Shown here piece after piece: positions 12,575 through 62,100 of a DNA stretch of 64,000 nucleotides (its first letter is position 1; each line of letters starts with the position of its first letter). This stretch comes from Vairimorpha necatrix (taxonomy: Eukaryota): the NCBI GenBank assembly GCA_036630325.1, contig CP142728.1, positions 930,001 to 994,000 on the forward strand. The letters are read 5' to 3'. The position numbers and the translations under genes are program-made. The notes under the pieces are model-generated. The model worked only from the letters and a program-made list of their open reading frames with translations, ran no database searches and was not told where the DNA came from.

Positions 12575-14911
12575 TCTTTTAATAATAAGATTTTTATCAC
12601 TGTTCATTGTGGTGTTTACTATCAACTTTCATGTATTTCCCGAGCTGTTCTATATTCAGCTCGGAAAGGAAAAACTCTTTATGGCTTACTGTAGGATTAT
12701 CAGATAGGCCGTTTTTTATAACTTTTATTGCCTTATCAACAGGCACATACTTTTTCCAATTTTGACGAAGATCGGAGATTATTTTCGTCAAAGCTGATCT
12801 GTTCCTAGAGATATAGTCGCCTACTTCGTTTTCGGCAATAATACTCTTACATTTTTTGAAGAGCTCCCTAGAGTTTCAGCAGCTTGAAAGCAGATTTCAT
12901 CTCTAATAAGAAAAATCCTGCCCTCTCCTTCAATATCTTTTACTAGAGGAATATTCTTTTCCTCTATGCTCTATATTTTGGGCTAGGTCTCTCTAATAAT
13001 GTGTTCCCCCCGGGGAACAATAAGCGACTACAATTTTGTATTTGCAGTCCTTGGGCCTCTTTCCGTTGATTGCTAGGTCTAGCAACTCTTCTCTGGATAG
13101 CTTATCTATTCAGTTCGGCTGTTTCTTCCTTGATGTGTGAGGAGGAGGTACCTTAGGCGAAGAAGTTTTCTTCATCTTGGATTTGCGTTCAGTCATAAAT
13201 TTCGACTTCGCACGAACTTTATAGATAACATATACCAATCATCTTCCAGTATTTTATTACAAGTTTTGAAACTTAACGGGGATTTCAACTGTTTCTTATC
13301 ACAGTTAAAATTCTTTTTTTACACCGCCTGGGAAGGGGGCAAGTTATTGGTTTCGACTGTTTTTGATGTTTTTGAGACATCAGATTTCTTTAAAACCTTT
13401 GGTTTCATATCACAATTTTTGAGAATGACTGTTCAGTCATTCTTCGTCTTTTCTGTTTTAAGAATATTTTTATTCATCAACTTTCTGTTTCCTTTACGGC
13501 ATCGGTTACCTTCCGTAAAAACACATTGAAGGTATTGAATGATGGGATCGTTTTACCAGTAACCTTTATTTGCCTTTATCTTGAGCTTTGGAAAATCCAC
13601 CAAACTTCTCCTTTTCCTTTTTTTGATCACTACTATCAGGTTTTATGGTGATTTGTTCCTCACATTCTTCTTTTGAGCAGCGAGAATTATGTCAATTCTC
13701 TGATCTAATCTTTCATTTGAAGCCTTTAGGGCATCAATTTGTGTGTCAAATTGGTTTCTAACTACAGAAATCTCAATTTCATGCTGTTTCTTCAAGTTTT
13801 TAAGCTTGAATCTCTTTTCACTGAGCTCTTCACAAAAGCATCTAAGTACTCCCGATGAATACTAGTCACTCCATGTAAATTCTTACAGTAGGAAGCAAAG
13901 CTAGCCACCAACCCGCTCTCCCACAGTACCTTTGGTTGGCATTTCTACCTTCTTCTCTCTTTATTCTGTTGAATAAAGTAATAGTTTGTGACCAGAATTT
14001 TATTAATTCTTGGTCTGTGTGAATAGCAGCTTGCAGAAGCTGGTAACTTCACAATCTGGTTTGTAACCTTCCAATACAAGTGAATTAACTCTTTATTATA
14101 CTCTAGAGGTCGATAAGTCGGTCATAATCTCGCAAGTTTCTCCCTCCTTTGTTTTACGTTTGGTTAACCAGCATTTTTCCGGAAATCTAAAACCGATCAG
14201 ATAATCTCGTGTGGAGAAAAGCCTTCTACTTTCTTCTCTTTTTCGATCTATGAGTCTTTGCACATTTTCCTTATCATCAAAATAAATGGTTTCTGTGTCC
14301 AAATGTTGCTTTATATGTATTCTCAATATTTTTTAACCATTCTATAATATTCATATTTCGTAGATCTTCAATAAAGTAAAGGTCCGCCGTGAACTTCAGT
14401 TCTAAGCCTTCTATTTTGGTTTTGAATGTAATGAACTTTCCCTTGAAATTTTCTGTCTGTTTCCTTCCGTCTTTTGACAGATGTACCTTGCTTAGGATTT
14501 CTCTGGTTGAATTCAACTTGACGTATCTTAGGCGGAGATATGTCTTAATGAGGTAAAAGGCATTTTCAGGAGTAAAGCTTTTATTATTTTTAGCGTTTGT
14601 ATTCACCTTCTTGCTCACCATGCCCTTGTGAGCTTTTTTTTGCTATTTATACTTTTACATGTTTGTTTGTAAACAAACAACAAGAAGTTTTAGAAAGACT
14701 ATTCTTGGAATGGAGTATATTGTATCATTACATGGATATGGATTATTTGTTAAGAATAGTAAACAAATAATGTGATGAGCTATGTTTTGATTGATAAGGT
14801 CATCACACTTGCCAACCAGCAGACGAAGGTTGGCAAGACTTAATGCTTTGCACCCAGTTATAATAAACATTGGTCCACCCTCCGCGACGTGGACGCTCTC
14901 TTGTGGCGGGC
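12575..14911 (-). mobile_element. LINE subfamily B copy: 5' ribozyme, 5' UTR and decayed ORF1
   Basis: Inverse homolog of ~59140-61760 (e.g. peptide SDLRQN.KKYVPVDKAIKVIKNGLSDNPTV). That copy continues into an APE domain. Many frameshifts. Confidence 0.8.
14842..14911 (-). ncRNA. HDV-like ribozyme (degenerate P2')
   Basis: Minus strand: P1 GCCCGCC/GGAGGGT (G1.U wobble, one mismatch), P2 AGAGA, P3 GCG-TCCACGT-CGC, P1.1 CC/GG, P4 ACCA...TGGGT, J4/2 GCAAA. Confidence 0.75.
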
Positions 14912-14954
14912 AGAGATTTGCAGCTAGTTAAAAAAAAACATTGGTCCCACCCTC
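14912..14954 (-). ncRNA. 3' half of a further HDV-like ribozyme copy
   Basis: Minus strand GAGGGT-GG-GACCAATGT(n)AACTAGCT-GCAAA-TCTCT, i.e. P1', P1.1, P4, J4/2, P2'. Confidence 0.65.
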
Positions 14955-15058
14955 AAAAAAATAAAATAAAAATAAAAATGTTTATATTTAAAAAGACAGA
15001 ATCAGCAAAAAGAAAAGCCACCAATCCCCCCCCCCAAAAAAAAAAAAAAAACTCCACC
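14955..15058 (-). repeat. LINE 3'-end fragment with T-rich tail (continues at 26250-26282 beyond the LTR insertion)
   Basis: Plus strand AAAAAGACAGAATCAGCAAAA...AAAAGCCACCAA...AACTCCACC matches the 3' ends at 26.3, 33.1 and 36.5 kb. Confidence 0.8.
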
Positions 15059-26388: not shown

Positions 26389-29300
26389 TAAAAAAATAAA
26401 AATAATAATAAAAATAAAAATGTATATTGTAAAAAAAGACATCCAGAATCAAAACAAACGTTCCTAAATCATCATAATAAGTTCCATATAATAGGAGGCC
26501 AAATCCATTCAAAGAAAAATACATTCAAATAAAGGAAATAAATAGATGGGATACAGAATGATATGAAAAATCAGCAAAAACGAAGAAAAGCCCCCCAAAA
26601 CTCCACTGCTAAGGAAAAATCATCAATAATCGCGCTTTCGCGCCAGCACACCTTTACGGCCTCGCTTGTAGTAGAAAAACTTGTTCTATGGGACAACAAA
26701 TTCTAGTCAACGATGACTAGATCCACCAGAGGTGGTGTGTGTGAAAACGACATCGTCTGGCTCAATACACCATTTAAGAACACAACTCAGTTCAGCGGAA
26801 CAAATAAAGCATCAGTATCATGCTTGAACCCTCCCAGGTCAATTATATAAATATATAAATTTTGTCGTTAACAAATTAACTAAATTTTTCTTCCATTTCT
26901 GGGTATTTACTTTTTTAAGAAATCTTCATTAATTATTCATGTGATTGTTGAGCTCCTTGAGTTTGTTATTGAATAGTATCGCTCTGGAGACAACCATCTT
27001 GTCTAGGAACTCAATGATCAAGCAGAGTTCTTTTATATGTTCCGGATTATTTTTCAACCCAATCTTATTACCAAGAAGTTGCTTTGTTTTTTCTTGGTTA
27101 TTTGTTTGTGAACATGTTAGTAGAGGCAGTTTATTTCGCCGCGATGATCTTATTTCGTTTAATGACGAGCACTCAAACAGGAAGTGTTCTAAATTTTCTT
27201 GTGGTCCATCACACAAAAAGCACATCATTCTATAACTCACTGGAATTCTCTTTGCATTGGCTATTGAGGAGGACCACCTTACTAGATTACATCTTAATCT
27301 AGTGTATGTTCTTATCTTTCTATTGTTGACTTTGTTTATGACATATTTCAACTGTGAGCTTCTTATGTCATAAATATCTGCTATTGATGCAGCTACAGAA
27401 GTATTTATCGTTCTCCTTCTTCTTAGTACATCAGTTGTTTTTGTAGAAACAGATACATTGTTCTTGTTTCATAGTCGTTACCGACGAATCTTTTTAACCA
27501 CCTTTGCGTTCTTGTAGACCAGGTGGTTTTTCTTTCTCTCGGATTGATTGAAATTATATCTGAGATTATGGTTTTATTGTGTTTCCACTTGTTGTATGCT
27601 CTAAAGCTACTTAAAGCTGCTTGTATATGAATTCGTTCTATACTGAACTCATCCAATAATCTATCTAGGGGAACTAATACCTGTTGGAATATCATCCCCA
27701 ATGATTTCCTTAAGATCCTATTGATCTTACCTGCTCTTGTACTAGACATTCCCCAAAGTTCATTGCCATACATTAGTGTGGGAACTAGTACACATTTTGT
27801 CAAGATCGCCTTAAATAATATGTTGATACCATTATTTAATAACTTTGGCATCAGGGCGTCTAGGGGTTTCGAGCCACGCATTGCCGCGTCTCTGACCAAA
27901 TGTTCTTCAAGTGTGTTTCCTTTATTAAAACACATAGATATCTATATTCTGTGACTTCTTCAATCACGCCAAAGTCTGTATTGATGGAATATAAACTTCT
28001 AATTTCTTGAATATTAGAGTTAACATTCCATTCTAATACTCCACTCTTCTTGCAGTTAATTTTCATTCTGTTGTCAACTGCACATTTCGAAATTCTTTTG
28101 ATCTTATTTTCTAGATCATCAATATTGTTTCCAAAGACAACGATATCATCGGCGAACATCAGTCCTGAAACTCTTGTATTTGATCTTGGGATCAAGACAC
28201 CATCTATGCCGTCAAAAATATCATTGATAAATATATTGAACAGCATTATAGAACAAGGGCATCCTTGTCTCACTCCTTTTCTGTAGCCATAGCCACTTGA
28301 ATTTTCTCCGGCGATTTTTATTGGCATGGTGGTGTTTTTATAGATATTCTTTATTGTATTTATCAAATACCTGGGGATATCTAGATTTTCTAGCTTACTA
28401 AATAATAAGTCATGACTTACATCATCATAAGCTTTCTCAAAGTCTATGAAACACATCACTGTGTTCACGCCTCTGAATTCTCTTCTTCTTACTACTTCAA
28501 GTAGGAGAGTAAATTGGTTCATACATTCTTCACCTTCTCTAAATCCTGCTTGGTATTTAGAGATGATGTTATTTTCTTTAACAAATTGGGTCAATCTGTC
28601 GTTAATTATCTTGAGATAGATCTTGCTAATTGTGTTTATTTTGGAGTTTCCCGTATAATTATTCAGATCTGTCTCTTCTCCTTTTTTGTGGAGACAAATC
28701 ATGTTTGCCATACTCCAGTATTTTGGTAGGGTTTCTCCACTAATGTATTTATTAAATTCATATAGCATGAATTTAAAGAATTTTTCTTCTACTGCTCTAG
28801 TCAGTAAGTGTTTGTATAGCTCGGTTGGAATCTCATCAGGACCGGCAGCTTTGTTGTTTCCGCATTTCTTCAGTGCGGATAGAAATTCTTCATCTGTTAT
28901 CTCTGGGGGAAGATCAAAAAAATCTACTTTATCATAGGCATTGACATCTATATCATTCTCTGACGATAATTCGGCGTAAAATTTATTCGCTATTTCTAGC
29001 TTCTTTGCTCGGCAAGTCTGAAGAAGCTTATTGTGGTCAATTAGAGTTACTTGATCCAAACGAATGGAAACACTTCTATTTTTCAGCCATTGCCAGAATT
29101 CTCGGGATCTATTACTTTTAAAGAGCTTTATTCCTTTTAAAACCCAAAGTTTCGATCTATCTTTGCGAATAAATTTCTTCGTATCCTCTACTCTCTTTTT
29201 GATATCTACGAGCCGGGCTAAATTGATTTCATTGTGATTTTTCATAACCGCTTTTGCTGCTAAACGCTTTTCTTTGAAGACTTTTAAGTATCTCCATCTC

Positions 29301-32279
29301 ATTGTAAGTCCAGTGTGGACCCTTTTCTTTTTGTAGATCTTTAAAGATGTACAAGCTTTTTTAATAATCTCGGGAAGATTATTCATACTTAATTGTTGAT
29401 TACTCAACTTCATTTTAAGCCTTTTAATCACTTTCGGATTTTCCAGCATCTTTTTATCATAGACTAGTTGATCAGAGATCTTATCAACAGTTAGTGAGAT
29501 ATATTTTTTGAGCACTAAGTGATCACTTAGTACCCAAGACTTTGATATAATGATCTTCTCATTATCGTATTCTTTCAGCCTAAAGATGGTATCAATTTTT
29601 CTCTTAGATCTTTTCCCATCTTTGAGAATCCTTGTACCATCTTTGCTGTTATACTTCATCGTAACTGGTAAACCAATTACTACTAGTTTTTTCTTGAGAG
29701 AAGAACTCTGCATATTCATATCTCCCATTACTATAATTTCACTATAATAGTTTCTGAATTTCTCTTTTTCTAGAAGAGACAAAAGTCTGGCAAGCACCTC
29801 CCTTTTGAGATCCCTGTCTTGTGGTATGTAGACATTTAAGATTAAGTATTTAATCCACTTGCCTTCTGATCTAAACTCAACCACTGTTTGCAGAATGTTT
29901 GAGTCAGTTCCCTTTTTGCTACATCTAATAGCTCCAGTGTTTCTCACCAGAGTTATTAACCCTGGTTTATTTTTTCCACTGCTTGGTGTTTCAACAGCAG
30001 TGTATTTTTCTAGTCTAAGGGATCTATTAGATTGTCTCCAAGTTTCCTGTAGACACATAATTTCTGGTTTCTCCTTCTTAAGAAGAAACTCAAGTTCTTC
30101 TCTCTTGTGGGAGAGATGGTTGATGTTGAGACTTAAGAGTTTTATCTTCTCTCTAATCTCTTTTATTGTTTTATTAGTTTTTTCTAATCCTTTTCTGTTA
30201 TCATTTAAAACTTTATAGCCTTCAGCTTTAATAATCTTAATCAATAAATTTTTATGTGTTTTTTCAACTACTATCTTTGTTAATGACGCATTTCTACGTC
30301 TAAACTTTCGTATTGTAAAAATGGCAGAATCTAATTCAGACTCTCTATTTACAAGACATTTTCTTAGGTCTTTACAATCGACGGGAATTCTTTGCATATT
30401 AACTATACAGAAATTTTCTTGTAGTTTTCTAGTCCATAGATTTTTCCGCGTATAAAATGAAGTTATGCACTTCATCCTTCTACGGCTTCTGAAAGCTCCA
30501 AAAGGTTTATTTAATCCTGTAGGATTAGTGATTTTTTTATTTAATAAAGATAATAAATATTGAATTTTGAAAGAGAAATATCTCTTGTAAAACTTAGACT
30601 TTAAAAGAATATCAACTTTATTCATTTTTAGAGTCCTTCATTTTCCGGGCAGGTTCACCCATCATACTATGTAGGTAGATAAAATTTTTATATGCTAAAT
30701 TCTCACTACCTAAATTCTTCTTTATGTACTTACAAGCTTCCGTAAGTGGTATAAAATTTTTATTAATTCTAGAAACCCATAGAAGCTCCTCCAGAATTAA
30801 ATCCTTCTTTGATTTCAGAAAGTCCACCATAAATGTCTCGTCATTACAGACATATGCCTCTGGGATTTCGTCCAAGAGATTTTTTACTGCTCTTTCGCAG
30901 GTACCTTCTCTGAGCATCAAGAGAATAGACTCTTCATCTCTAAACTGCTTTAAGAGTGGGATGTCTTTTCTCTCAATAGTGAGTAGAGCAGCCCAAGCGT
31001 CTCTAGCTTGGTGCTCCTTCCATACTCCCAGACCTCCTACCAATACAAATTTAAATTTGCATTTGGATATAGGACATCCACCTCTAATAATTTTAATGAG
31101 AGCTTCTTTAGAAAGCCCTTTTGCCCTGTTCTTCTGAGGTTGAACTGGGTTTATTTTCTTGCCAGATTTCTCTTGGGATTCCTTCTTAGCCATTTTGGGG
31201 CTTGAATTTTTCTTTTCTTTGATGGAATTTTTTTTCTCGCCTAGTGACATTGTTAGGCTTTCCTTTTTGTGAAATTTAATACACTTCCCTAGGTTTTCTA
31301 CTTTAATAGAAGTAAATCTATTAAGTTCTTTTAATTTAGTATGTTTAATACTAGAGTTTTTATTAAGACCAAATTGCATCTTTGGCTTAAAGGTATGTCT
31401 GACAGACTTCCATCCATCTTTATTGATTTGGTATAGCTTAACTCCATTCTTTGGAGCTTTGCTTCTACCAGATATTATTGCTGAGATAATTTTAAGATGA
31501 TTATCTACTGCTTTCTTATTTATGTCAGCTACATCGAGCTTAACATTATTGGTATTTACAACTTCATTAGTTATATTTTTACTTTCTTTAGAGACTTCAA
31601 TTGTTTCTAAACACATTCTTTTGCCATATTCTGACAATCTATCTTCTTCTTCTACTTTAGAGGCAGATTCGAGATTTTTGACATTAATTAAAAAATCTTC
31701 ATTTATGATTTCTAAATTAGAAACATCATTCTTTCCAGTAGCTAACTGAAGGGTTTCGCTACTGGTGACATTTGGAACATTGGAGTTAATATCCTTTTGT
31801 TCTACATGTTCTTTTGAGTGATTCTCTATCATCATCTCAATTTTGTTCTTTGATGCTTCAGTAATTTGATCACTGTCATCCATCAAATTATTTTTAATCA
31901 AATTTTTTAATTTCATTTTTTGTTTTTCTAGCTTATCGTGGGAGAGCTCCAGATATGTCTGCTGAATCGTTACTAATTCAGTAGTACTAGATATAAACTT
32001 TTTAAGATCATTAAGATCTTTTCTACTTTTATTTTTTGACATGTCCAAAAAATCATTTTTACAAATTCTTTCTGAAAGAATTTTAATTTTTTTAAGAAAA
32101 TATTTCATCTCTCCATCTTTTTTGAAAGTAACGCTAGAGTTACCATCATCAGCATAAACATGCTTAATATGTTCTGTTAAATACATTTCTGTATCTAACT
32201 TGTTGTTTTGACCATCATAGTGGTCACTTGTGGCACTACTGTGCTCGCTCCTGCTTTTTTCCTCTTTACCCTTCATCAT
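26389..32279 (-). mobile_element. APE-RT non-LTR retrotransposon (LINE subfamily A, copy 1), near full length
   Basis: ORF1, then ORF2 with APE (LQETW, MGDMN, SDH), RT (GVRQGCP, FADD) and C-terminal CFLC...EHFLFEC. Structured 3' UTR. Confidence 0.93.
26929..30625 (-). pseudogene. LINE ORF2 (APE endonuclease-RT-Zn knuckle), split by a frameshift and a stop
   Basis: ORFs 27860-30625, 27423-27935 and 26929-27351 are collinear with the A2 copy. Confidence 0.9.
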
Positions 32280-33071
32280 GTTTAGACTTAAGAGTTTTAT
32301 GTTCTCTTTGGTCTTTTTATTTACTTTACTAGATTTCTCTAGTTCTTTTCTATTATCATTTAAAACTTTAAAGCCTTTAGCTTTAACTGTCTTAATCAAT
32401 AAATTTGCGTATAGTTTTTCAACTATTATTTTTGTAAAAAACGTGTCTCTTCGTCTATACTTTCTTGCTGTAATGATGGAATTCTCCAAAAGAGAGTTCT
32501 TCTTACATAAGTCTTTGAGGAGATCTTTCACTCCATAAGGAATTCTTTGTATCTTGACAATACAATATTGTTCTTGTACTTTCTTCCACCACATATTCTT
32601 TCTAATAGAAAAATATTTGAGACTATTCAGTCTCCTTGGTGTTTTAAAAGTATTTTTTAATTTATTATAACCAATTGGATTATGAGTTTTTTTATTTAAA
32701 GATTTAAAAATATCACTTTTGTTATAGGAAAATAATTTCCTATAAAAACAGAACTTTAACAAGGATACTTTATTCATTATAAAGTCCTTAGATTCTCGGG
32801 CAGGCTCACCCATCATATTTTCTAAATAAATGAAATATCCATGGTTTGGCTTTTCTTTATTTAATTCTTTAGTTATGTACCTACATGCTTTAACAAGTGG
32901 TACAAAGTTTTTATGCGTTCGAGAGAATCTTTGTAGTTCTCCTAGAACAGTTGTTTTTGTTAAAGACAAAAATTCGATGAAGAAATTAACTTCCTCACAG
33001 ATATTAGAACCCACGAACTTTTCTTTAATTTTGCCTAGTACCTTAGGGCACACGTTTTCTCTAATCATCAA
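30618..33071 (-). CDS. Chimeric ORF: paralogous ORF1-end/ORF2-start fragment fused in frame to LINE ORF1 (probable native start ~32279)
   Basis: The first ~265 aa repeat the end of this ORF (FIYL..MMGEPAR) and the start of ORF2 (MNKV..., IKLLSLN). The rest is Lys-rich ORF1-like sequence. Confidence 0.7.
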   Translation of the reverse strand: MMIRENVCPKVLGKIKEKFVGSNICEEVNFFIEFLSLTKTTVLGELQRFSRTHKNFVPLVKACRYITKELNKEKPNHGYFIYLENMMGEPARESKDFIMNKVSLLKFCFYRKLFSYNKSDIFKSLNKKTHNPIGYNKLKNTFKTPRRLNSLKYFSIRKNMWWKKVQEQYCIVKIQRIPYGVKDLLKDLCKKNSLLENSIITARKYRRRDTFFTKIIVEKLYANLLIKTVKAKGFKVLNDNRKELEKSSKVNKKTKENIKLLSLNMMKGKEEKSRSEHSSATSDHYDGQNNKLDTEMYLTEHIKHVYADDGNSSVTFKKDGEMKYFLKKIKILSERICKNDFLDMSKNKSRKDLNDLKKFISSTTELVTIQQTYLELSHDKLEKQKMKLKNLIKNNLMDDSDQITEASKNKIEMMIENHSKEHVEQKDINSNVPNVTSSETLQLATGKNDVSNLEIINEDFLINVKNLESASKVEEEDRLSEYGKRMCLETIEVSKESKNITNEVVNTNNVKLDVADINKKAVDNHLKIISAIISGRSKAPKNGVKLYQINKDGWKSVRHTFKPKMQFGLNKNSSIKHTKLKELNRFTSIKVENLGKCIKFHKKESLTMSLGEKKNSIKEKKNSSPKMAKKESQEKSGKKINPVQPQKNRAKGLSKEALIKIIRGGCPISKCKFKFVLVGGLGVWKEHQARDAWAALLTIERKDIPLLKQFRDEESILLMLREGTCERAVKNLLDEIPEAYVCNDETFMVDFLKSKKDLILEELLWVSRINKNFIPLTEACKYIKKNLGSENLAYKNFIYLHSMMGEPARKMKDSKNE

Positions 33072-33113
33072 AAGTACTACTTCCGAATCTTTAAATTGTT
33101 TTATAAGTGGTAT

Positions 33114-36100
33114 AAAAAATAAAATTGTTTATTGTAAAAAAGACAGAATCAGCAAAACGAAGAAAAGCCTCCAAGCCACCAAAAACTCCACTAATAAAGA
33201 AAAAATCATCAATAATTGCGTTTACACGCCAGCATACCTTAACGGCCTCGCTTGTAGGAGAAAAGTTTGTTCCCATAGGACACATCCTTAGTCATAATAT
33301 GACTAGAGACCCACTTTCATGGGTCTAATGAAAAACGAAAACGCCTGGCTCAATGCACCATTTAAGAACACGACTCAGTTCAGCGGAACAATACAGCATC
33401 AGTATCATGCCCGACCTCTCCCAGGTCAAATATAATTAAATATAAGTCTTTTTGTTAATAAATCAACGTCTCTTTCTTCTATTTCTAGATCTTCATTTTT
33501 TTAATTATTCATATTAATTACCTTGTTTCGTTATCTCCTTAAGTTTCTTTTCAAATATAATTCTTCTAGAGACAACCATTCTATCTAAGAACTCTATAGT
33601 CCAACAAAGTTCTTTTATCTTATCTGGGTTGTTTCTTAATCCGATTTTATTACCAAGAAGTAATTTGGTTTTTTCTTGGTTATTTGTTTTTGAACAAGTC
33701 AGTAGAGGCAGTTTATTTTCAAAAGATGATCTAATGTCAGTTAAACAGACGCACTCCAGCAGAAAGTGTTCTAAATTTTCTTGTGGTCCATCACACAAAA
33801 AGCATTTATTTCTATAACTCATAGATATTCTTTTTGAATTGGTTATTGCTGAGGACCACTTTACTAGATTACATCTCAATCTAGTATATGTTCTAATTTT
33901 TCTATTGTTTATTTTGTTCATGACATATTTTATTTGTGAATTTCTTATGTCATATTGATTTGCTATTGATGCAGCTAAGGAAGTATTTAGAGTTCTCGAC
34001 TTCTTAGTACATCAATTATTTTTGTAGTGATAAATCTACTATCACTTGATTCATATTCGTTGCCAACAAATCGTTTTAACCATCTTTGTGTTCTTGAACA
34101 CCAGGTAGTTTTTCTTTCTTTCGGATAAATTGAGATTATATTCGATATGATTGTCTTATTGTGTTTCCACTTGTTGTATGCTCTAAATCTACTTAAAGCT
34201 GCTTGTATATGAATTCGTTCGATACTGAACTCGTCCATTACTCTATCTAGTGGAACTAATACTCTTTTGAATATCATTCTGATAGATTTTCTTAAGATCC
34301 TGTTAATCTTACCTGCTCTTGTACTTGACATTCCCCACAGTTCACTACCATACATTAGTGTGGGTACTAGTACACATTTGATTAAGATCGCCTTGAAGTA
34401 AAGGTTGATGCTATTATTCATCAACTTGGGCATCAAGGCGTCTAAGGCTTTCTTGCCACGCATTGTTGCGTCTTTGACCAAATGTTCTTCTAGCGTGTTT
34501 CTTTTAATTAAGACACCTAGATATCTGTATTCAGTGACTTCCTCAATCACACCAAAGTCTGTACTGAGAGAATACAAACTTCGGAATTCTTGTATGTTAG
34601 AATGAGCAGCCCATTCTAATACTCCGCTTTTTGAGCAGTTAATCTTCATTCTGTTATTAACTGCCCAATTAGAAATTCTATTGATCTTATTATTAAGATC
34701 ATAAATGTTGTTTCCGAAGACAACAATATCATCTGCGAACATCAGTCCCGGAGCTCTCGTATTTGACCTTGGGATCAAAACTCCTTCTATGCCATTAAAA
34801 ATATCATTGATGAATATATTGAATAGCATTGGAGAACAAGGGCACCCTTGTCTCACTCCTTTTCTGTAGCTATAACCACTTGACGTGTCACCACCAATTT
34901 TCACACGCATAGTGGTATATTTATAAATATCCTTTATTGTATTGATTAAATACAATGGGATATTAAGTTTTGTAAGCTTCTCAAATAATAAGTCATGACT
35001 TACATTATCATAAGCTTTTTCAAAGTCAATGAAACACATTATTGTGTTCAGGCCTCTGAATTCTCTTCTTCTCACTATTTCTAGTAGAGATGTAATCTGA
35101 TTCATACACTCTTCACCTGCTCGGAATCCTGCTTGGTATCTAGAGAGTATATCTTGTTCTTCGACAAATTGAGTTAACCTGTCATTTATTATCTTGAGAT
35201 AGATCTTACTAATTGTGTTAATTAAGGAGATTCCCCTATAATTATTCAGATCTGTCTCATCTCCTTTTTTGTGAAGGCAAATCATGTTTGCCATGCTCCA
35301 ATATTCTGGAGGACTATTTCCACAAATATATTTATTAAATTCATGTAGCACGAATTTAAAGAATTTATCTTTTACTGCTCTAGTCAGTAAGTGTTTGTAT
35401 AGCTCGGTTGGAATCTCATCAGGACCGGCAGCTTTGTTATTTCCACATTTCTTCAGTGCGGATAGAAATTCTTCATCTGTTATCTCTGGGGGAAGATCAA
35501 CAAGATCTACTTTATCATAGACATTGACATCTATATCATTCTCTGACGCCAAATCAGCGTAAAATTTATTCGCTATTTCTAGCTTCTTTGCTCGACAAGT
35601 CTGAAGTATCTTATTGTGGTCAATTAGAGCCACTTGATCCAAACGAATGGAAACACTTCTATTTTTCAGCCATTGCCAGAATTCTCGGGATCTGTTACTT
35701 TTAAAGAGCTTTATTCCTCTTAAAGCCCAAAGTTTCGATCTATCTTTGCGAATCAACTTTTTAGTTTCGTCTACTCTCTTTTTGAGATATTCGAATCTAA
35801 TTGAGTTGATTTCGTTGTAATTTTTCATAACAGCTCTTGCTGCTAGACGTTCTTCTTTGAAGACTTTTAAATATCTCCATCTCATTGTAAGTCCAGTATG
35901 GACTTTTTTCTTTCTGTAAATCTTTAACGATGTACAAACTTTTTGAATAATCTCAGGAAGATTATTCATGTTTAATTGTTGATTACACAACTTCTTTTTA
36001 AGCTTTTTAATCACTTTTGGATTTTCCAGCATTTTCTTATCATAAACTAGTTGATCTGAGATCTTATCAACGGCAAGTTTAATTTTTCTTTTGAGCACTA

Positions 36101-36491
36101 AGTGATCACTTAATACCCAAGACTTGGATATAATGATCTTCTCATTATCATTACTTTTTAGTCGAAAGATGGTATCAGTTTTCCTCTTAGATCTTTTACC
36201 ATCTTTGAGGATCCTTGTACCATCGTTGCTGTTATATTTTATTGTAACTGGCAAACCAACTACATTTAGTTTTTTCTTGAGACTAGAACTCTGCATATTC
36301 ATATCTCCCATCACTATGATCTCACTATAGTTATTTCTGAAATTCTCTTTTTCTAAAAGAGAAAGTAATCTGGCCAAGGTCTCCCTCTTGAGATCCTTGT
36401 CTTGTGGTATGTAGACATTTAAGACTAAATACTTAATCCATTTGCCTGCGGAACTAAACTCAACTACGGTTTGCAGGATGTTTGAGTCTGT
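33114..36491 (-). mobile_element. LINE subfamily A copy 2, 5'-truncated within the APE domain
   Basis: ORF 33987-36593 matches A1 ORF2 from DSNILQTVVEF onward (YRGISL, QGCPCSP, FADD). C-terminus 33514-33921 is frameshifted. 3' UTR module at 33130-33428. Confidence 0.93.
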
Positions 36492-36995
36492 AAAAAAAAA
36501 AAAATAAAAATGTTTATTGTAAAAAGACAGAATCAGCAAAACGAAGAAAAGCCACCAAGCCACCAAAAACTCCACCAACCAGAAAATCATCAATAATTGC
36601 GTTTACACGCCAGCATACCTTAACGGCCTCGCTTGTAGGAGAAAAGTTTGTTCCCATAGGATACATCCTTAGTCATAATATGACTAGAGACCCACTTTCA
36701 TGGGTCTGATGAAAAACGAAAACGCCTGGTTCAATACATCATTTAAGAACACGACTCAGTTCAGCGGAACAATACAGCTTCAGTATCATGCCCAACCTCT
36801 CCCAGGTTTAAAATATGAAGAATTACTCGAAAGTTAACGGTGTTCTTCTCACCAGCAATGGGTCTCCCACCCCTAGAGTATAGCTGACCCTACTTACCAA
36901 CCAGCAGCCGAAGGTTGGTATGACTTAGAGATCTGCACCTAGTTAAAAAACATCGGTCCCACTCTCCGCGACGTGGACGCTTTCTTGTGGAGGGT
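36492..36995 (-). mobile_element. Non-autonomous short internally deleted element: ribozyme 5' end joined to LINE 3' module
   Basis: 36895-36995 matches the 5' end at 14810-14911. 36505-36808 is near-identical to the A2 3' UTR. No ORF between them. Confidence 0.85.
36927..36995 (-). ncRNA. HDV/CPEB3-like self-cleaving ribozyme
   Basis: Minus strand ACCCTCC-ACA-AGAAA-GCG-TCCACGT-CGC-GGAGAGT-GG-GACCGATGTTTTTTAACTAGGT-GCAGA-TCTCT. P1, P2, P3, P1.1, P4 and the J4/2 C are all present, with one mismatch each in P1 and P2. Confidence 0.8.
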
Positions 36996-37062
36996 AGTAC
37001 CAAATAAAATAAAAAAAAATACGCTCTCTTGTGAAGGCCAACACCTACTATACATACAAAAA

Positions 37063-37287
37063 AAGCAGTAACCTCAAAATGTCGGCATACACCTTCATTC
37101 TTACAGTTCTGCTTAAAAGAGTAGTATTCTCCTAAATGTATCTTTGAGCTACGCTTCAGGCTTAAGAGGCTTTCAGCCTTAATCGAAACGACGTAGCTAA
37201 GCAACATAACTTAATAGTTAATCGCACTACCAGTGGTCATCACTTAGAGTTCCTCTCGTACTATCAAAGTTCACTCAAAAATACTTA

Positions 37288-37329
<42 letters not shown>

Positions 37330-37764
37330 TCTCACGTTCCTCATTACCGGGTGAACAATCCAACACTTCGTAACATATACACTACGATGATCAGAAGAGA
37401 CGACATCGAAGAATCAAAAAGCAGAGTCGCTATGATCGCTTGCCTGCTACAAGCCAGTTATCCCTGTGGTAACTTTTCAATCACCCAATACATAATGAAT
37501 GTAATTGGGATCGCTAGGCCAAGGTTTCCCTACTAAATACAGTCATATGCATAAAGTAAAGCAGATTTATTCCCTTATAATAAACTGATGGTTACCATCC
37601 ATCATTCATCTACCTTAGGACAGCTGTGTTACTTTTTAACAGCTGTACCGCCCCAGCCAAACTCCCCATATATTCTAATAAATAAATATTCAAACATACT
37701 AGTGGTTTCACAATACTTCTCCCACCTCTCTACAATATACCGAATATTTATTAAAACATACTAA

Positions 37765-37796
<32 letters not shown>

Positions 37797-37895
37797 GATA
37801 AATAACAAGCCCGTTCCCTTGTCTCGTGGTTTCACAAAATTGTAAGTAGGGACAGTAGGAATCTCGTTGCTCCATTCATGCGCGTCACCAATTAA

Positions 37896-37948
<53 letters not shown>

Positions 37949-39544
37949 ATTCGCTTACACAACTTTAACAATAAATGCACTGGGCAGAATTCACTTCTTG
38001 TAAATACAAAAAGCTATGTTTTTAATAAACAGTCAGATTCCTTACATAGTAAAAGTTCTAGCATGCTAGAGCCAATCTTTATCCCAAAGTTACAGATCTA
38101 ATTTGCCGAATTCCCTTACTTACTTTAATTTAAAATATTTGTTATGATACAAAGACACCTGATGCGGTATAGGTACGGTTAAAATTATTTTATTTTTATC
38201 AAGTATATATAACTAACTATTTCTTATCATGACAATCCCATAGTTAAAATTAAATTTAATTCATTTATCTTAAATTTATTGAAATATACTGTCATTATCA
38301 AGTTACCTTATAATAATTTAATAAAGAATTATTAATCTTTTTTGTTTTTATAAATAACACCGATTCACTTCAATAATAATTGAAAACCCTAGTCTATATC
38401 TATACAAATATATTGTTACTGCCTCCAAGATCGGCTCATTTGTTTCTTCTATATATACTCACATATATACTTCAATACAAACAAATTGCACAGCTACCTA
38501 AATATTTATTAGAAACATCTCATAAAAGTAGTAATCTTCTTCCATTTTATACAATAATACATTCGGTAGGTACGTTGTAACACGTTTCTTAGCGGATTTC
38601 TACTTCCATAACAACCGCCCTACTGTCTCAATGTATTCATCATATTTATGGTATAATATCTACTATTTAGAATATTTAATGTTTCATAAGGTTCATCCCT
38701 TTTTGCACATCATTCTTACAATCATGTGCCCACTAGTTATACAATAGATTCATTATATAAATTTAATTTATATAATTCCATAGAATTAAAGATTTCTCAT
38801 AGTTAAAAAACTATAACAGTGTCCTACATCTATGTCCTATACAATAATAACTGCTGTCCTGAGAGACATTTCGCTGTGAACCAGCTACCACACAGTTCGA
38901 TTGGTCTTTCGCCACTATACACATCTTAAATCATCGATTTGCACGTCAGAATGATTATGGTCTTCCAATAAACTGTTGCTTATCTTCAACCAGAACATGT
39001 ATAGTTCACTGTGTTTCGGGTCTTATAATTATAACTTATCAAGTTAATAAAGATTAAAAATTTACTTTTATCTTGCTATAATTATAATCTCCTTGGTCCG
39101 TGTTTCAAGACGGGTCCTTAAAAATAAGGCTAAACTCCACACATTTTCACAAGTTCCTTCGCAGTACTTATTTTCTATCGGTATACCATTATATTTAACC
39201 TTAGATATTTCATTCTACCTTTATTCAAACTGCACTACCAAGCAGCTCTACTCAAGTACATTATTATTCTATTCTATTAATAACGAATATAATATTCTCT
39301 ATAAATATAATTAATAGAATAAACCATTTACAACTCCAATTAAGGATTACAATGGAGGGTTATTTCTTGTTCACTCGCTGCTACTAAAGAAATCCTAGTT
39401 AGTTTCTTTTCCTCCTTTTAATGATATGCTTAAGTTCAAAGGGTTATCAATACATTATAAATATATTAATTAGGTAAATAATATACTTTCGTATTCTATT
39501 ACGACCTTCATCGTTATGGTATCCTATTGATCCCATGTGTGGGT
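37063..39544 (-). rRNA. Large subunit rRNA (microsporidian, 5.8S-like region fused at 5' end); ends approximate
   Basis: Minus strand conserved motifs TTGAACTTAAGCATATC, GACCCGTCTTGAAACACGGACCAAGGAG, TTAAGGTAGCCAAATGCC, CAGGGATAACTGGCTTGT and the sarcin-ricin loop AGTACGAGAGGAAC. Confidence 0.96.
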
Positions 39545-39581
39545 AAATTTAATAATTAAAATTAATTTAAATTTAACTTAT
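39545..39581 (-). other. Very short AT-rich ITS
   Basis: ~37 bp, almost all A/T, between the SSU end (GGATCATAA) and the LSU start. Confidence 0.8.
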
Positions 39582-40827
39582 TATGATCCTGCTAATGGTT
39601 CTCCAACAGCAACCATGTTACGACTTATATCAGATCTAATACATATTGTTCAAGTAGTTTTCACTAATTTCACAACACATATCATCTTAGATAGCGACGG
39701 GCGGTGTGTACAAAGAACAGGGACACATTCAATTCTACTTATTTAATAAAATTTACTAGCAATTCCAAGTTCAAATATCTCTTACAAAATATTATCCCAT
39801 AAAGATTATATATCTATTGTATTGCGCGTGCAGCCCAAAATGTCTGAGGGCATAACGGACCTGTTTTAATCCTTTCCTTCCTACACTGATTGTGTCTGTC
39901 TATTAATAAAAGGGTCTCACGTCTTGTTGAAATTAATCAAAACTTCACAGCATCCATTGAAAACGGCCATGCACCACTATTATCATTCTCAGATTGAAAA
40001 TCTTCTCTGAATAATAAAATATTGGTAAGTTGCCTCGCGTTGAGTCAAATTAAGCCGCACAATCCACTCCTTGTGGTATTCTTCCGTCAATTTCTTTAAT
40101 TTTCAATCTTGCGATCATACTATCCCCAGAGCCAAAAAACTCAAATTTCTATCATCTAATACAATTAATATCATATCACATCGTCGGCATAGTTTACTGC
40201 TGGAACTACAATGGTATCTAATCATCTTCGCTCCTCCAGCTTACGTCCTTGTTCAAAAAATACATACAAGTGTACAGCTTTCGCTTCTGTTCGTCCAGTC
40301 AGGGTCGTCACATTTCATCTCTCTCCCAACTATACAGTACACCTCATATTGCTTCTTAAATATAAACTACGGACTTTTTAACTGCATCAATCATCATACA
40401 CACTCTTGGAACAAGTATTACCGCGGCTGCTGGCACTTGATTTGCCCTCCAATTAATCACCTCATATACTTTTACAATATGAAACAATAGAATATTACTT
40501 CCCATAACTGCCTCAGATAAAATCCATAGGTCAAGTTTCGCCCCTGCTGCAATCCTTAGACTTAGTAGCCGTCTCTCAGGCTCCTTCTCCGGAATATTAC
40601 AAAGTAATACCGTTACCCGTCATTGCCTTGTTAAGCCATTACCTTAACAACTAGCTGATAGGTCTCACTCTTACTGTATATGTCTTATGCTACACTTTAA
40701 CGCAGTTATACTAATTTAATACATTAAATAAAGTGAGTATTACTGAGCAGTCCATTTTTCCATATCAAAAACATGCATGGGTTAATCTTAGGGAATAGCG
40801 TCTACGTCAGGCAGAATCAACCTGGTG
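39582..40827 (-). rRNA. Small subunit rRNA (reduced, Vairimorpha/Nosema type)
   Basis: Starts CACCAGGTTGATTCTGCCTGACG. Contains GTGCCAGCAGCCGCGGTAA and TGTACACACCGCCCGTC. ~1.25 kb. Confidence 0.98.
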
Positions 40828-59139: not shown

Positions 59140-62100
59140 ACCAAACGCAAAAAAAGGAGGAAGAAACTTGCGAGATTGAGGCCGGCTTATCGATTTATGG
59201 AGTACAAGAAAGTGTTAATTCACTAGTATTAAGAGGCTACAAACCAGATTGTGAAGTTAGCAGCTTCCGCAAGGCTGCTATTTACACAGACCAAGAATTG
59301 ATAAAATTCTGGTCACAAACAGAGACTTTATTCAACAGAATAAAGATAGAAGAAGGCAGAAATGCCAACCACGGGTACTGTGGGAGAGCGGGGTTGATGG
59401 CTAGCCTTGCTACTACTGTAAGAGTTCGCATGTAGGGACTAGTATTCATCAGGAGTACTTAGATGCCATCTATGAAGAGCTTAGTGAACAAAGATTCAAG
59501 CTAAAAACATGAAGAAACAGCCCGAGATTGAGATTTCTGTAATTAGAAACCAATTCAACACACAAATTAATGCCCTAAAGGCTCAAATGAAAGATTAGAG
59601 CAGAGAATTGACATGATTCTCACTGTAAAAAGGAGAGTGTGAAGAACCAATAACCATAAAAGTTGGTAGGACTGATCAAAAAAGAAAAAGAAGAAGTTTG
59701 GTGGCTTCTCCAAAGCTCAAGATAAAGAGCAAATAAAGGTTACTGGTAAAAGGATCCCATCATCCAATACCTTTAATGTGTTTTTACGGAAGGTAACCGC
59801 TGCCGTAAAAAGAAAACAAAAAGTTGTTGGAGATTAATATTTGGCTAAAGTGCGCATAGGAATATTTTTTGAACTAGGGTTTTTTATTTTTTTTGCCTCT
59901 TTTTTTGAAAAATGAAGGAAGGAAGATGGAGAGGAAGAAAGAAAATTAACAAGCAGAATAAAAGTTTTAATAAAGCAGCAAAGACTATAGTAGAAGAATT
60001 TCTTTGAAGCATTTACCTAAACAGATATAGTTTTGCACTATTGGCTGATCTGTTTCTATTAGGTAAAGAATTTTTTAGAGAACGCCAATTATCTTCTATG
60101 GCATTGGTATGGACTCCCGTGATTGGGTCTCTAAAGTGTAATGTATGTTAACCATATGGTGTTGGCTAAATAAAGTACCTAAAGAATTATAGGCTCTCCA
60201 CATATCACTATGTATGATACTTTTTGTGCTTACATATTTTAATAAAAGTGCTGTTAGAGTTTCTTTATCCCTTTTTTGATGTGTACTAGTATTATTTTAC
60301 GTTCCAATGTACGTTCGGTCATTCCAAAACACCAAAATCCTTTCACTAGCTTGCCTCGGTGGTTTTTATTTTTTCCTATCTCCGTCTCATCAATTTCTAC
60401 TATTATGTTCTCTCCTCCAATAATGGTCAGTGATGACAAATATTTATCGTAAATGTTCATTTCTTTTAGTTTTTTTAATACTGTAGATATAGATTTTTTC
60501 GAACAATGTAAAATTTGACAAATATACTTACTGGGATACCCAAGAATCCACAGATTAAGTATTTGTAATGTTAGTAAATGACAAAGTTTAGAATTACTAA
60601 AGAAAGAGTCATTCCAAATAGAAATTGTCTTTCGACATCCCTTCCAAGTACAAGTTAATAAATACTACTTTTTACTTACTTTACGTATTTTACCTCCACA
60701 TTGATCACAAATATTTATTGTTTTTTCTCTTATCAGTTCATTATATATAGTTTCTAATTCTTCTCTTGTTTTGATTCCTTCCTCCATTTTTCAAAAAGGG
60801 GCAAAAAAAATAAAAAACCCCTAGTTCAAAAAATATTCCTATAATGCACTTTAGCCAAATATTTTTCTAACAGAAAAGACGGAGAATGACTGGACAGTCA
60901 TTCTCAAAAATTGTGATATGAAACCAAAGGTTTCAAAGAAATCTGATGTCTCAAAAACATTAAAAATAGTCGATACAATGGGTTTGCCCCATTCTTAGGC
61001 GGTGTAAAAAAGGATTTCGACTGTGATAAGAAACAGTTGAAAGTGCCCGTTTGAAGTTTTAAAACTTGTAATAAAATACTGGAAGATGATTGGCCAATGT
61101 CATCTACAAAGGTTCGTGCGAAGTCGAAATTTATGACTGAGCGCAAATCCAAGATGAAGAAAATTCTTCGCCTAAGGTACTTCCTCCTCCCACATCGAGG
61201 AAGAAACAGCCGAATTGAATAGATAAGCTATCCAGAGAAGAGTTGCTAGACCTAGCAATCAACGGAAAGAGGCTCAAGGACTGCAAATACAAAATTGTAG
61301 TCGCTTATGGTAAATTCCGAGGGGAACACATTTTTAGAGAGACCTGGCCCAAAATATAGAGCATAGAGGAAAAGAATATTCCTCTAGTAAAGATATTGAA
61401 GGCGAGGACAGGATTTTTCTTATTAGAGATGAATTCTGTCTTCAAGCTGCAGAAACTCTAGAAAGTCTTCAAAAAATGAAGAGTATTATTTGCCGAAAAC
61501 GAAGTAGGCGACTATATCTCTAGGAACAGATCAGCTTTGACGAAAATATTCTCCGATCTTCGTCAAAATCGGAAGAAGTATGTGCCCGTTGATAAGGCAA
61601 TAAAAGTTATAAAAAACGGCCTATCTGATAATCCTACAGTAAGCCATAAAGAGTTTTTCCTTTCCGAGCTGAATATAGAACAGCTCGGGAAAGACATGAA
61701 AGTTGATAGTAAACATCACAATGGACAGTTATAAAAATCCTATTATTAAAAGTATTCTATTATATAATATATATTTATATAAAAAACAAGTTATACGGCT
61801 TCTTAGCTTACCTAAAATTATTGTCTACCCTACAATATACCAAAAGTTGGTAACTTTACTAATAAAAGTAATGGATGTAAGTTGATATTCAAATCTCATG
61901 TCTACATCGTAAAAAAAGCAAGAATGCCGAGAACAAGCATTCAAAAAAGTCTTTGTCTGGTCAAAATAATGGCCAACTATATAAAAGGAGAAGAACTCCG
62001 ACAACAGTTTGACAGAGTGATACGGGATTGTCGGTCTCTCTTATATATACCAGAAAGCATCGCAGAAAAGATGCTAACTTCACCTTCTGCATAGTCAGAA

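Follow-up and report, generated by a model that had tools for sequence, protein, structure and literature searches.

The window analysed here, a 64,000-nt stretch of the Vairimorpha necatrix genome (contig CP142728.1, positions 930,001 to 994,000), contains a 504-nt element on the minus strand (36995 to 36492), directly behind a microsporidian LSU rRNA gene, and its copies elsewhere in the genome indicate that it belongs to a ribozyme-headed retroposon family that is young, recently active and present in many copies. The element consists of a 69-nt HDV/CPEB3-type ribozyme fold, 110 nt that are specific to the family, and a 324-nt tail in common with an APE-type LINE, referred to here as LINE A. 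We consider it highly probable that this is a non-autonomous SIDE/SINE-like retroposon, with a ribozyme head and a LINE tail, that cycles behind the rDNA by means of the LINE A enzyme. The element, its parts and its neighbours are as follows.

37040-40827, minus strand: microsporidian SSU-LSU rRNA unit upstream of the element, identified with Rfam
36996-37040, minus strand: gap of about 45 nt from the modelled LSU end to the head, with the same junction as the unit at G000:C1:484859
36927-36995, minus strand: ribozyme head, HDV/CPEB3-type, with predicted cleavage just 5' of 36995
36995-36989 with 36967-36961, minus strand: P1 of the window head
36985-36981 with 36931-36927, minus strand: P2 of the window head
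36980-36968, minus strand: P3/L3 of the window head
36960-36959, minus strand: P1.1 GG of the window head
36935, minus strand: putative catalytic C of the window head (C61)
36893-36922, minus strand: family-specific 10-bp hairpin 3' of the ribozyme, predicted by folding, with 97% of cells paired
36816-36892, minus strand: family-specific middle, absent from LINE A, with no tRNA or Rfam match
36492-36815, minus strand: 3' module common to the LINE A 3' UTR, with a T-rich tail at its end
33114-36491, minus strand: LINE A copy A2, lacking its 5' half and beginning inside the APE region directly after the element tail
26569-33113, minus strand: more LINE A sequence, oriented likewise, with one short piece at 93% and an older copy at 79-82% that starts at its ATG (32276)
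14807-15030, minus strand: decayed pieces of the element family (tail 14960-15030, partial head 14912-14954, head and hairpin 14807-14910)

At the Rfam gathering threshold only the two rRNA genes are matched (SSU_rRNA_microsporidia at 39581-40827 and LSU_rRNA_eukarya from 39466 downward, both on the minus strand), and the unit that they form is the presumed source of a read-through transcript; the LSU gene directly upstream of the element had been missed in a first-pass annotation of the window. In an equivalent unit, 45 nt separate the end of an archaeal LSU model from the start of the element, and the same anchor gives a distance of about 44 nt in the window. Downstream, the LINE pieces in the same orientation contain RT and APE domains. 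Comparison of the window with itself bore out the earlier observation that the 5' 100 nt or so match a ribozyme-hairpin piece further downstream (36892-36997 versus 14807-14913, 83% over 108 nt), and the roughly 85 nt placed between the two matching parts measure about 80 nt. The 3' part had been described as near-identical to A2, as it is in the window (36499-36815 versus 33114-33434, 93.8% over 321 nt), but this closeness is peculiar to the window copy, and typical family copies match the LINE A tail at 86-87% over about 324 nt. A tRNA-derived SINE head was sought, and ARAGORN reported no genes in two loci and no tRNA family matched; folding of the whole element is not better than that of shuffles (z 0.43, with about -1.3 for the middle). 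On the plus strand, a word near 36705 resembles a hammerhead; it was rejected, as it is without a stem II and differs between copies. Other mobile elements are dense at 471-24190 of the window (LTR-type RT/RNase H, zinc knuckle, ISXO2-like and DDE_3 transposases, and an integrase-like frame).

The proposal that a ribozyme forms the 5' end is supported by the fit of the head to an HDV-type fold. Positions 1-69 can be arranged as a 7-bp P1, a 3-nt joiner, a 5-bp P2, a 3-bp P3 with a 7-nt loop and the P1 partner, after which come the P1.1 GG, a short P4 and a joiner reading C-A-purine-A that leads to the P2 partner. In an alignment of 22 distinct rows, 87-98% of cells are paired in the five helices (97% for P3 and 93% for P1.1), and the putative catalytic C (C61) is invariant in 27 of 27 aligned heads. 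According to PMC3774820, HDV-like ribozymes have a 6-7-bp P1 closed by the strand that follows P3/L3, a P2 of at least 5 bp, and a 3-bp P3 with an L3 containing the U and G of the reverse wobble; PMC10879173 places the catalytic C at the start of J4/2. An HDV descriptor, composed after the sequence had been seen, finds a 7-bp P1 and a 5-bp P2 without mismatch in 18 heads (loci L043-L082); 100 shuffled versions of the window gave no perfect and three loose hits, and 2000 shuffled versions of the element none and two, respectively. Four pairs vary on both sides, and the observed covariation values are reached by 28-97 of 500 shuffles, because the copies are too young for covariation to exceed them. 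The minimum-energy structure of the canonical head comprises P1, P3 and P4; the window head does not fold in this way.

The CPEB3 model (RF00622) provides a further comparison. It hits the genome 17 times, and 16 of the hits are family heads; all score far below the gathering score (16 bits at best, versus 35 bits), and at so low a threshold the control also rings in 13 of 14 genomes. With loose E-values the window copy matches the model weakly (E 0.46), and a good copy searched alone gives no Rfam hit. The order of helices is the same as in the CPEB3 type and the P3/L3 core aligns to its consensus nearly letter for letter, whereas the family differs in having A instead of G at +1 in most copies, a 3-nt J1/2, a 5-bp P2 and a score far below the cut-off. 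Taken as a structural model, the head is most likely an HDV-type self-cleaving ribozyme that cuts at +1.

Searches with the whole element gave 85 genome matches, of which at least 21 are near-complete (nearly all 504 nt) and distributed over eight contigs, 19 at 91-100% identity and two at 83-84%; the near-complete count is a lower bound, with 40 of 84 candidates scored. The junction between the two parts, which would be single-copy if the element were a one-off deletion as the first-pass annotation had considered, is multi-copy in the genome. The 5' 180 nt match only the family itself (51 genome matches), and 33 of 34 genome hits of the core pattern are within the family. A one-mismatch core match at C10:818230 is without P1 or P2 context, and we regard it as due to chance. 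The middle region is present in 39 copies at the loci examined, and 26 of these start at +1 or +2, the predicted cleavage site; such starts are the best indirect sign that the ribozyme may be active. Shorter variants, in which the head is joined to a LINE-type tail without most of the middle, are present at L046, L047, L050 and L054.

Nineteen copies are full-length, with a +1 or +2 start and the tail, and 11 of these have exact target-site duplications of 12-16 bp, each of which begins with A after the T tail. The 11 duplications fall on about eight target sites, with one pair being a segmental duplicate; in a control, 11 of 342 mismatched flank pairs match, all of them between copies at the same target site. 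No duplication is present in the other eight, the window copy included. There are 17 distinct upstream 12-mer flanks among the 19 copies, and 14 copies have at least 98.7% identity to the family consensus. Most insertion targets are older copies of the element itself, such that copies are nested, and the target sites have no common motif beyond the first A. A 15-bp duplication also flanks a copy of 88% identity that is far from rDNA, with the nearest LSU end 660 kb away. The family shows the variable target-site duplications, the 3' tail and the lack of an ORF by which non-autonomous non-LTR retroposons are defined, and the many copies, their distinct duplications, the T tail and the common 3' UTR are in agreement with the earlier proposal of a non-autonomous mobile parasite of the LINE.

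LINE A is composed of ORF1 and a 1242-aa APE-RT ORF2, and the 1242-aa frame with APE and RT is kept in at least 11 copies (150 of 835 RT candidates scored). For ORF2, the closest relatives that have a name are proteins of Vairimorpha ceranae (cluster representatives 55-56% identical), in keeping with a host of the Vairimorpha/Nosema type, and the best solved-structure match of the LINE is human L1 ORF2 (E 3e-33). A search with the LINE alignment gave 19 contigs at 23-41% identity, none of which matches the element or the HDV descriptor, and a search of metagenome contigs with the LSU-end pattern found none. Of 24 runs that came up in a word comparison, 20 had 0.22-0.63 of the words, mostly as the LSU part would give by itself, and they do not count as evidence for the element. 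In one otherwise intact LINE A copy (L053, about 500-1710), ORF1 is split by a 1.2-kb insertion with transposase-like frames.

Comparison of sequences shows the element tail to be clearly LINE A-derived and since diverged, and one explanation is that the element arose by internal deletion of a ribozyme-bearing LINE, joining its own 5' and 3' ends as in R2 SIDEs, NARTc and RIME. In three of 26 LINE A starts (located by an ATG motif; L043-L078, window 32276) a ribozyme is indeed directly upstream, and an extinct LINE A ancestor with a ribozyme is conceivable. However, the sequences upstream of the 26 starts differ, 23 have other flanks, and the three ribozymes are at three different spacings. 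In two of the three, element positions 56-71 are duplicated over 14-16 bp on either side of the LINE and the remainder of the element is further downstream, showing that the LINE had inserted into the element. The 110-nt middle is also absent from LINE A, and we therefore judge such a deletion to be very unlikely. The earlier suggestion that both ends of the element are those of the LINE, and that it thereby defines the minimal cis elements for mobilisation, is not supported, given a LINE that begins at the ORF1 ATG and an element whose first 180 nt are found only in its family; the requirements of the LINE enzyme can be read from the 3' tail alone.

LINE B, which is 56% identical to LINE A over 468 aa, likewise starts at the ORF1 ATG (L095-L106, window 59130), and both LINE families appear to have almost no 5' UTR. 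The piece at 14810-14911 had been assigned to the 5' end of LINE B, an assignment that is not upheld here, as LINE B copies start at ATG with unrelated flanks and the piece carries the family hairpin, which is absent from LINE A. Ribozyme-like pieces are present in only two of 15 regions upstream of LINE B, about 150 and 640 nt away, and with ATG starts, unrelated flanks and these different distances LINE B was rejected as the ribozyme donor. A 1-kb inverted-repeat element with many genome copies splits a LINE B copy in the window (59836-60863).

There are 18 LSU ends in the genome, and ribozyme sequence starts 26-80 nt past a common LSU anchor in 17 of them. Of the 51 heads, 48 follow an LSU end on its own strand at a distance of no more than 50 kb (32 within 2 kb), as do 39 of 40 LINE A pieces (43 hits, less three at 68-70% identity that were set aside as LINE B-type), in a zone that constitutes at most 3% of strand space; three heads are far from rDNA. 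The exceptional unit (L133/L059, G000:C10:158262-162100) is a complete SSU-LSU that stops short of the anchor, is without the upstream 1.6 kb and has no element behind it; a retro-copy was considered for this unit, and no flanking duplication was seen. LINE A copies form sense-strand nested arrays of up to about 40 kb behind LSU genes, in which older copies tend to be further out (17 rDNA units). The insertions of the family are past the modelled LSU end, leaving the rRNA gene uninterrupted. As there is no target motif beyond the first A, the preference appears to be for a region, and because LINE B copies are on many contigs with unrelated flanks, selection against insertions elsewhere would be insufficient to explain the placement of LINE A and the element.

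Another origin to consider is one in which the 3' spacer of the host rDNA, including a ribozyme that terminates the pre-rRNA, supplied head and middle, and a LINE tail landed behind them to give a chimera that turned mobile. In yeast, RNase III cuts the 3' spacer of pre-rRNA, and the single RNase III-domain protein found here (G000:C1:868348-869277, a 1145-aa frame) is two-domain and Dicer-like, from a search that scored two candidates and could miss a diverged enzyme. This finding favours a spacer origin, as do the ribozyme sequences 26-80 nt past the anchor and a 10-nt word common to the LSU flank (window 37020-37030) and the ribozyme P2/P3 strand, at which several junctions (L046, L047, L055, L056) join flank and ribozyme. 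However, with about 10 kb examined per unit, a fully paired head is present in only 10 of 18 units (nine at +40 to +464 and one at +7114), which weighs against host dependence on the ribozyme; many LSU-proximal heads are truncated or mutated, and the C10 unit is complete without any ribozyme. We consider a spacer origin to be less likely again than deletion of a LINE. A separate proposition concerns present function, namely that the ribozyme makes the cut that ends the host pre-rRNA and that the LINE parks its ORF1 behind an intact ribozyme by way of the head hot spot. It is raised because ribozyme sequence comes directly after 17 of 18 units and the RNase III search gave no stand-alone enzyme, and we think it improbable.

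The window copy itself is a mosaic. Set against 12 LINE A copies, 13 other family copies are distinguished by 46 diagnostic columns, of which 12 fall no later than the junction. The first 15 columns of the window copy are family-type (to 36730), the next 27 of 27 are LINE-type (36720-36585), and the last three resemble two LINE copies bearing family-type letters. The simplest reading of these columns is that a family copy recombined with the tail of a LINE further downstream to give the window copy, with the intervening stretch lost, and this accounts for the near-identity of its tail to that of A2. Its LSU junction and private changes are in common with the unit at C1:484859. Two G-to-A changes, at 36982 in P2 and 36963 in P1, put one mismatch in each of these two helices, and the window copy is probably a poor cleaver. 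This recombinant and the duplication of whole units (the C5 pair, and C1 and the window with one junction) are what would be seen if a spacer sub-repeat were multiplied only by unequal recombination among rDNA units with no retrotransposition, a notion largely refuted, and to us barely credible, given the distinct short duplications, the tails, the insertions in the middle of older copies and the solo copy with its own duplication.

Returning to the retroposon that we favour, a plausible cycle is one in which RNA polymerase I reads through the LSU end into the element, the HDV-type ribozyme frees the element RNA by cutting at +1, and the LINE A ORF2 protein, bound to the common 3' UTR, makes a new insertion through target-primed reverse transcription. 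New copies would mostly land back behind the rDNA, where they could be transcribed again with the rRNA gene uninterrupted. Insertion at the hot spot at element position 56 duplicates the last ribozyme strand, and the incoming copy thus ends up downstream of a ribozyme that is still complete. Read-through, cleavage, tail recognition and reinsertion into the same zone would together account for the ends, the duplications, the nesting and the strand bias. Mobilisation by LINE A is suggested by the common tail and the like duplications. The head does not appear to come from LINE A as it now exists, and no head outside the family was found in the genome by the 5' match, the core pattern or the CPEB3 model. 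The likeliest donor, by somewhat better than an even chance, is a ribozyme-bearing retroelement that has since been lost; next comes a ribozyme native to the rDNA flank, which we hold to be possible yet doubtful.

The family permits a direct test of how microsporidian pre-rRNA gains its 3' end, and if the ribozyme did make that cut, a retroposon would perform a step of ribosome biogenesis. It also offers a compact test system, with a 69-nt ribozyme represented by natural intact and broken alleles and a 324-nt tail for the LINE enzyme. Our literature search found no report of an HDV-like ribozyme in microsporidia; subscription journals and repeat libraries were outside the search, and an unnamed repeat entry may exist. 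The Vairimorpha genome paper (PMC10759460, text and three supplements) does not contain 'ribozyme' or 'SINE', and neither word is mentioned in the text and one supplement of PMC12449221. The latter reports that, in Hamiltosporidium tvaerminnensis and Gurleya vavrai, LINE repeats lie between rRNA operons arranged tail to tail, and these resemble LINE A in lying mainly on the 3' side of microsporidian rRNA operons. A review of rDNA and transposons (PMC10946416) lists only MITEs for microsporidia.

Among known non-autonomous elements, NARTc, RIME and SIDER of trypanosomatids have a 77-nt head that is common to the autonomous L1Tc/ingi and doubles as a promoter (PMC4035085), whereas the partner LINE here is without the head, and the 5' end in common with the LINE that marks a simple SIDE is therefore lacking. 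The earlier likeness to rDNA SIDEs was apt, and it is closest for the R2/R1 hybrid SIDEs of Drosophila, in which, according to PMC3414825, an HDV-like ribozyme is placed ahead of the 3' UTR of a ribozyme-less APE LINE, with 14-bp duplications and dependence on the 28S co-transcript. Both are non-coding, combine a ribozyme with a borrowed LINE 3' end and generate short duplications (14 bp, compared with 12-16 bp here), and the position and strand of the window family would fit a similar reliance on an rRNA co-transcript. The hybrid SIDEs occupy one fixed site inside 28S, the R1 site, and have their donor, R2, in the same genome (PMC3414825), whereas the window family has many sites behind the LSU end, nesting, a 110-nt unique middle, dispersed single rDNA units and a microsporidian host. 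By analogy, the family would work like a hybrid SIDE without being a member of that group, as its insertions leave the rRNA gene uninterrupted and no R2 donor came up in the genome, where 150 of 835 RT candidates were scored. It represents a different mode of life on rDNA, with residence just past the LSU end in almost all units and not inside the gene, and with targeting by an APE LINE that is region-specific instead of site-specific. The design of a ribozyme with a borrowed tail, described in PMC3414825 as rare in Drosophila, is thereby extended from Drosophila to a microsporidian.
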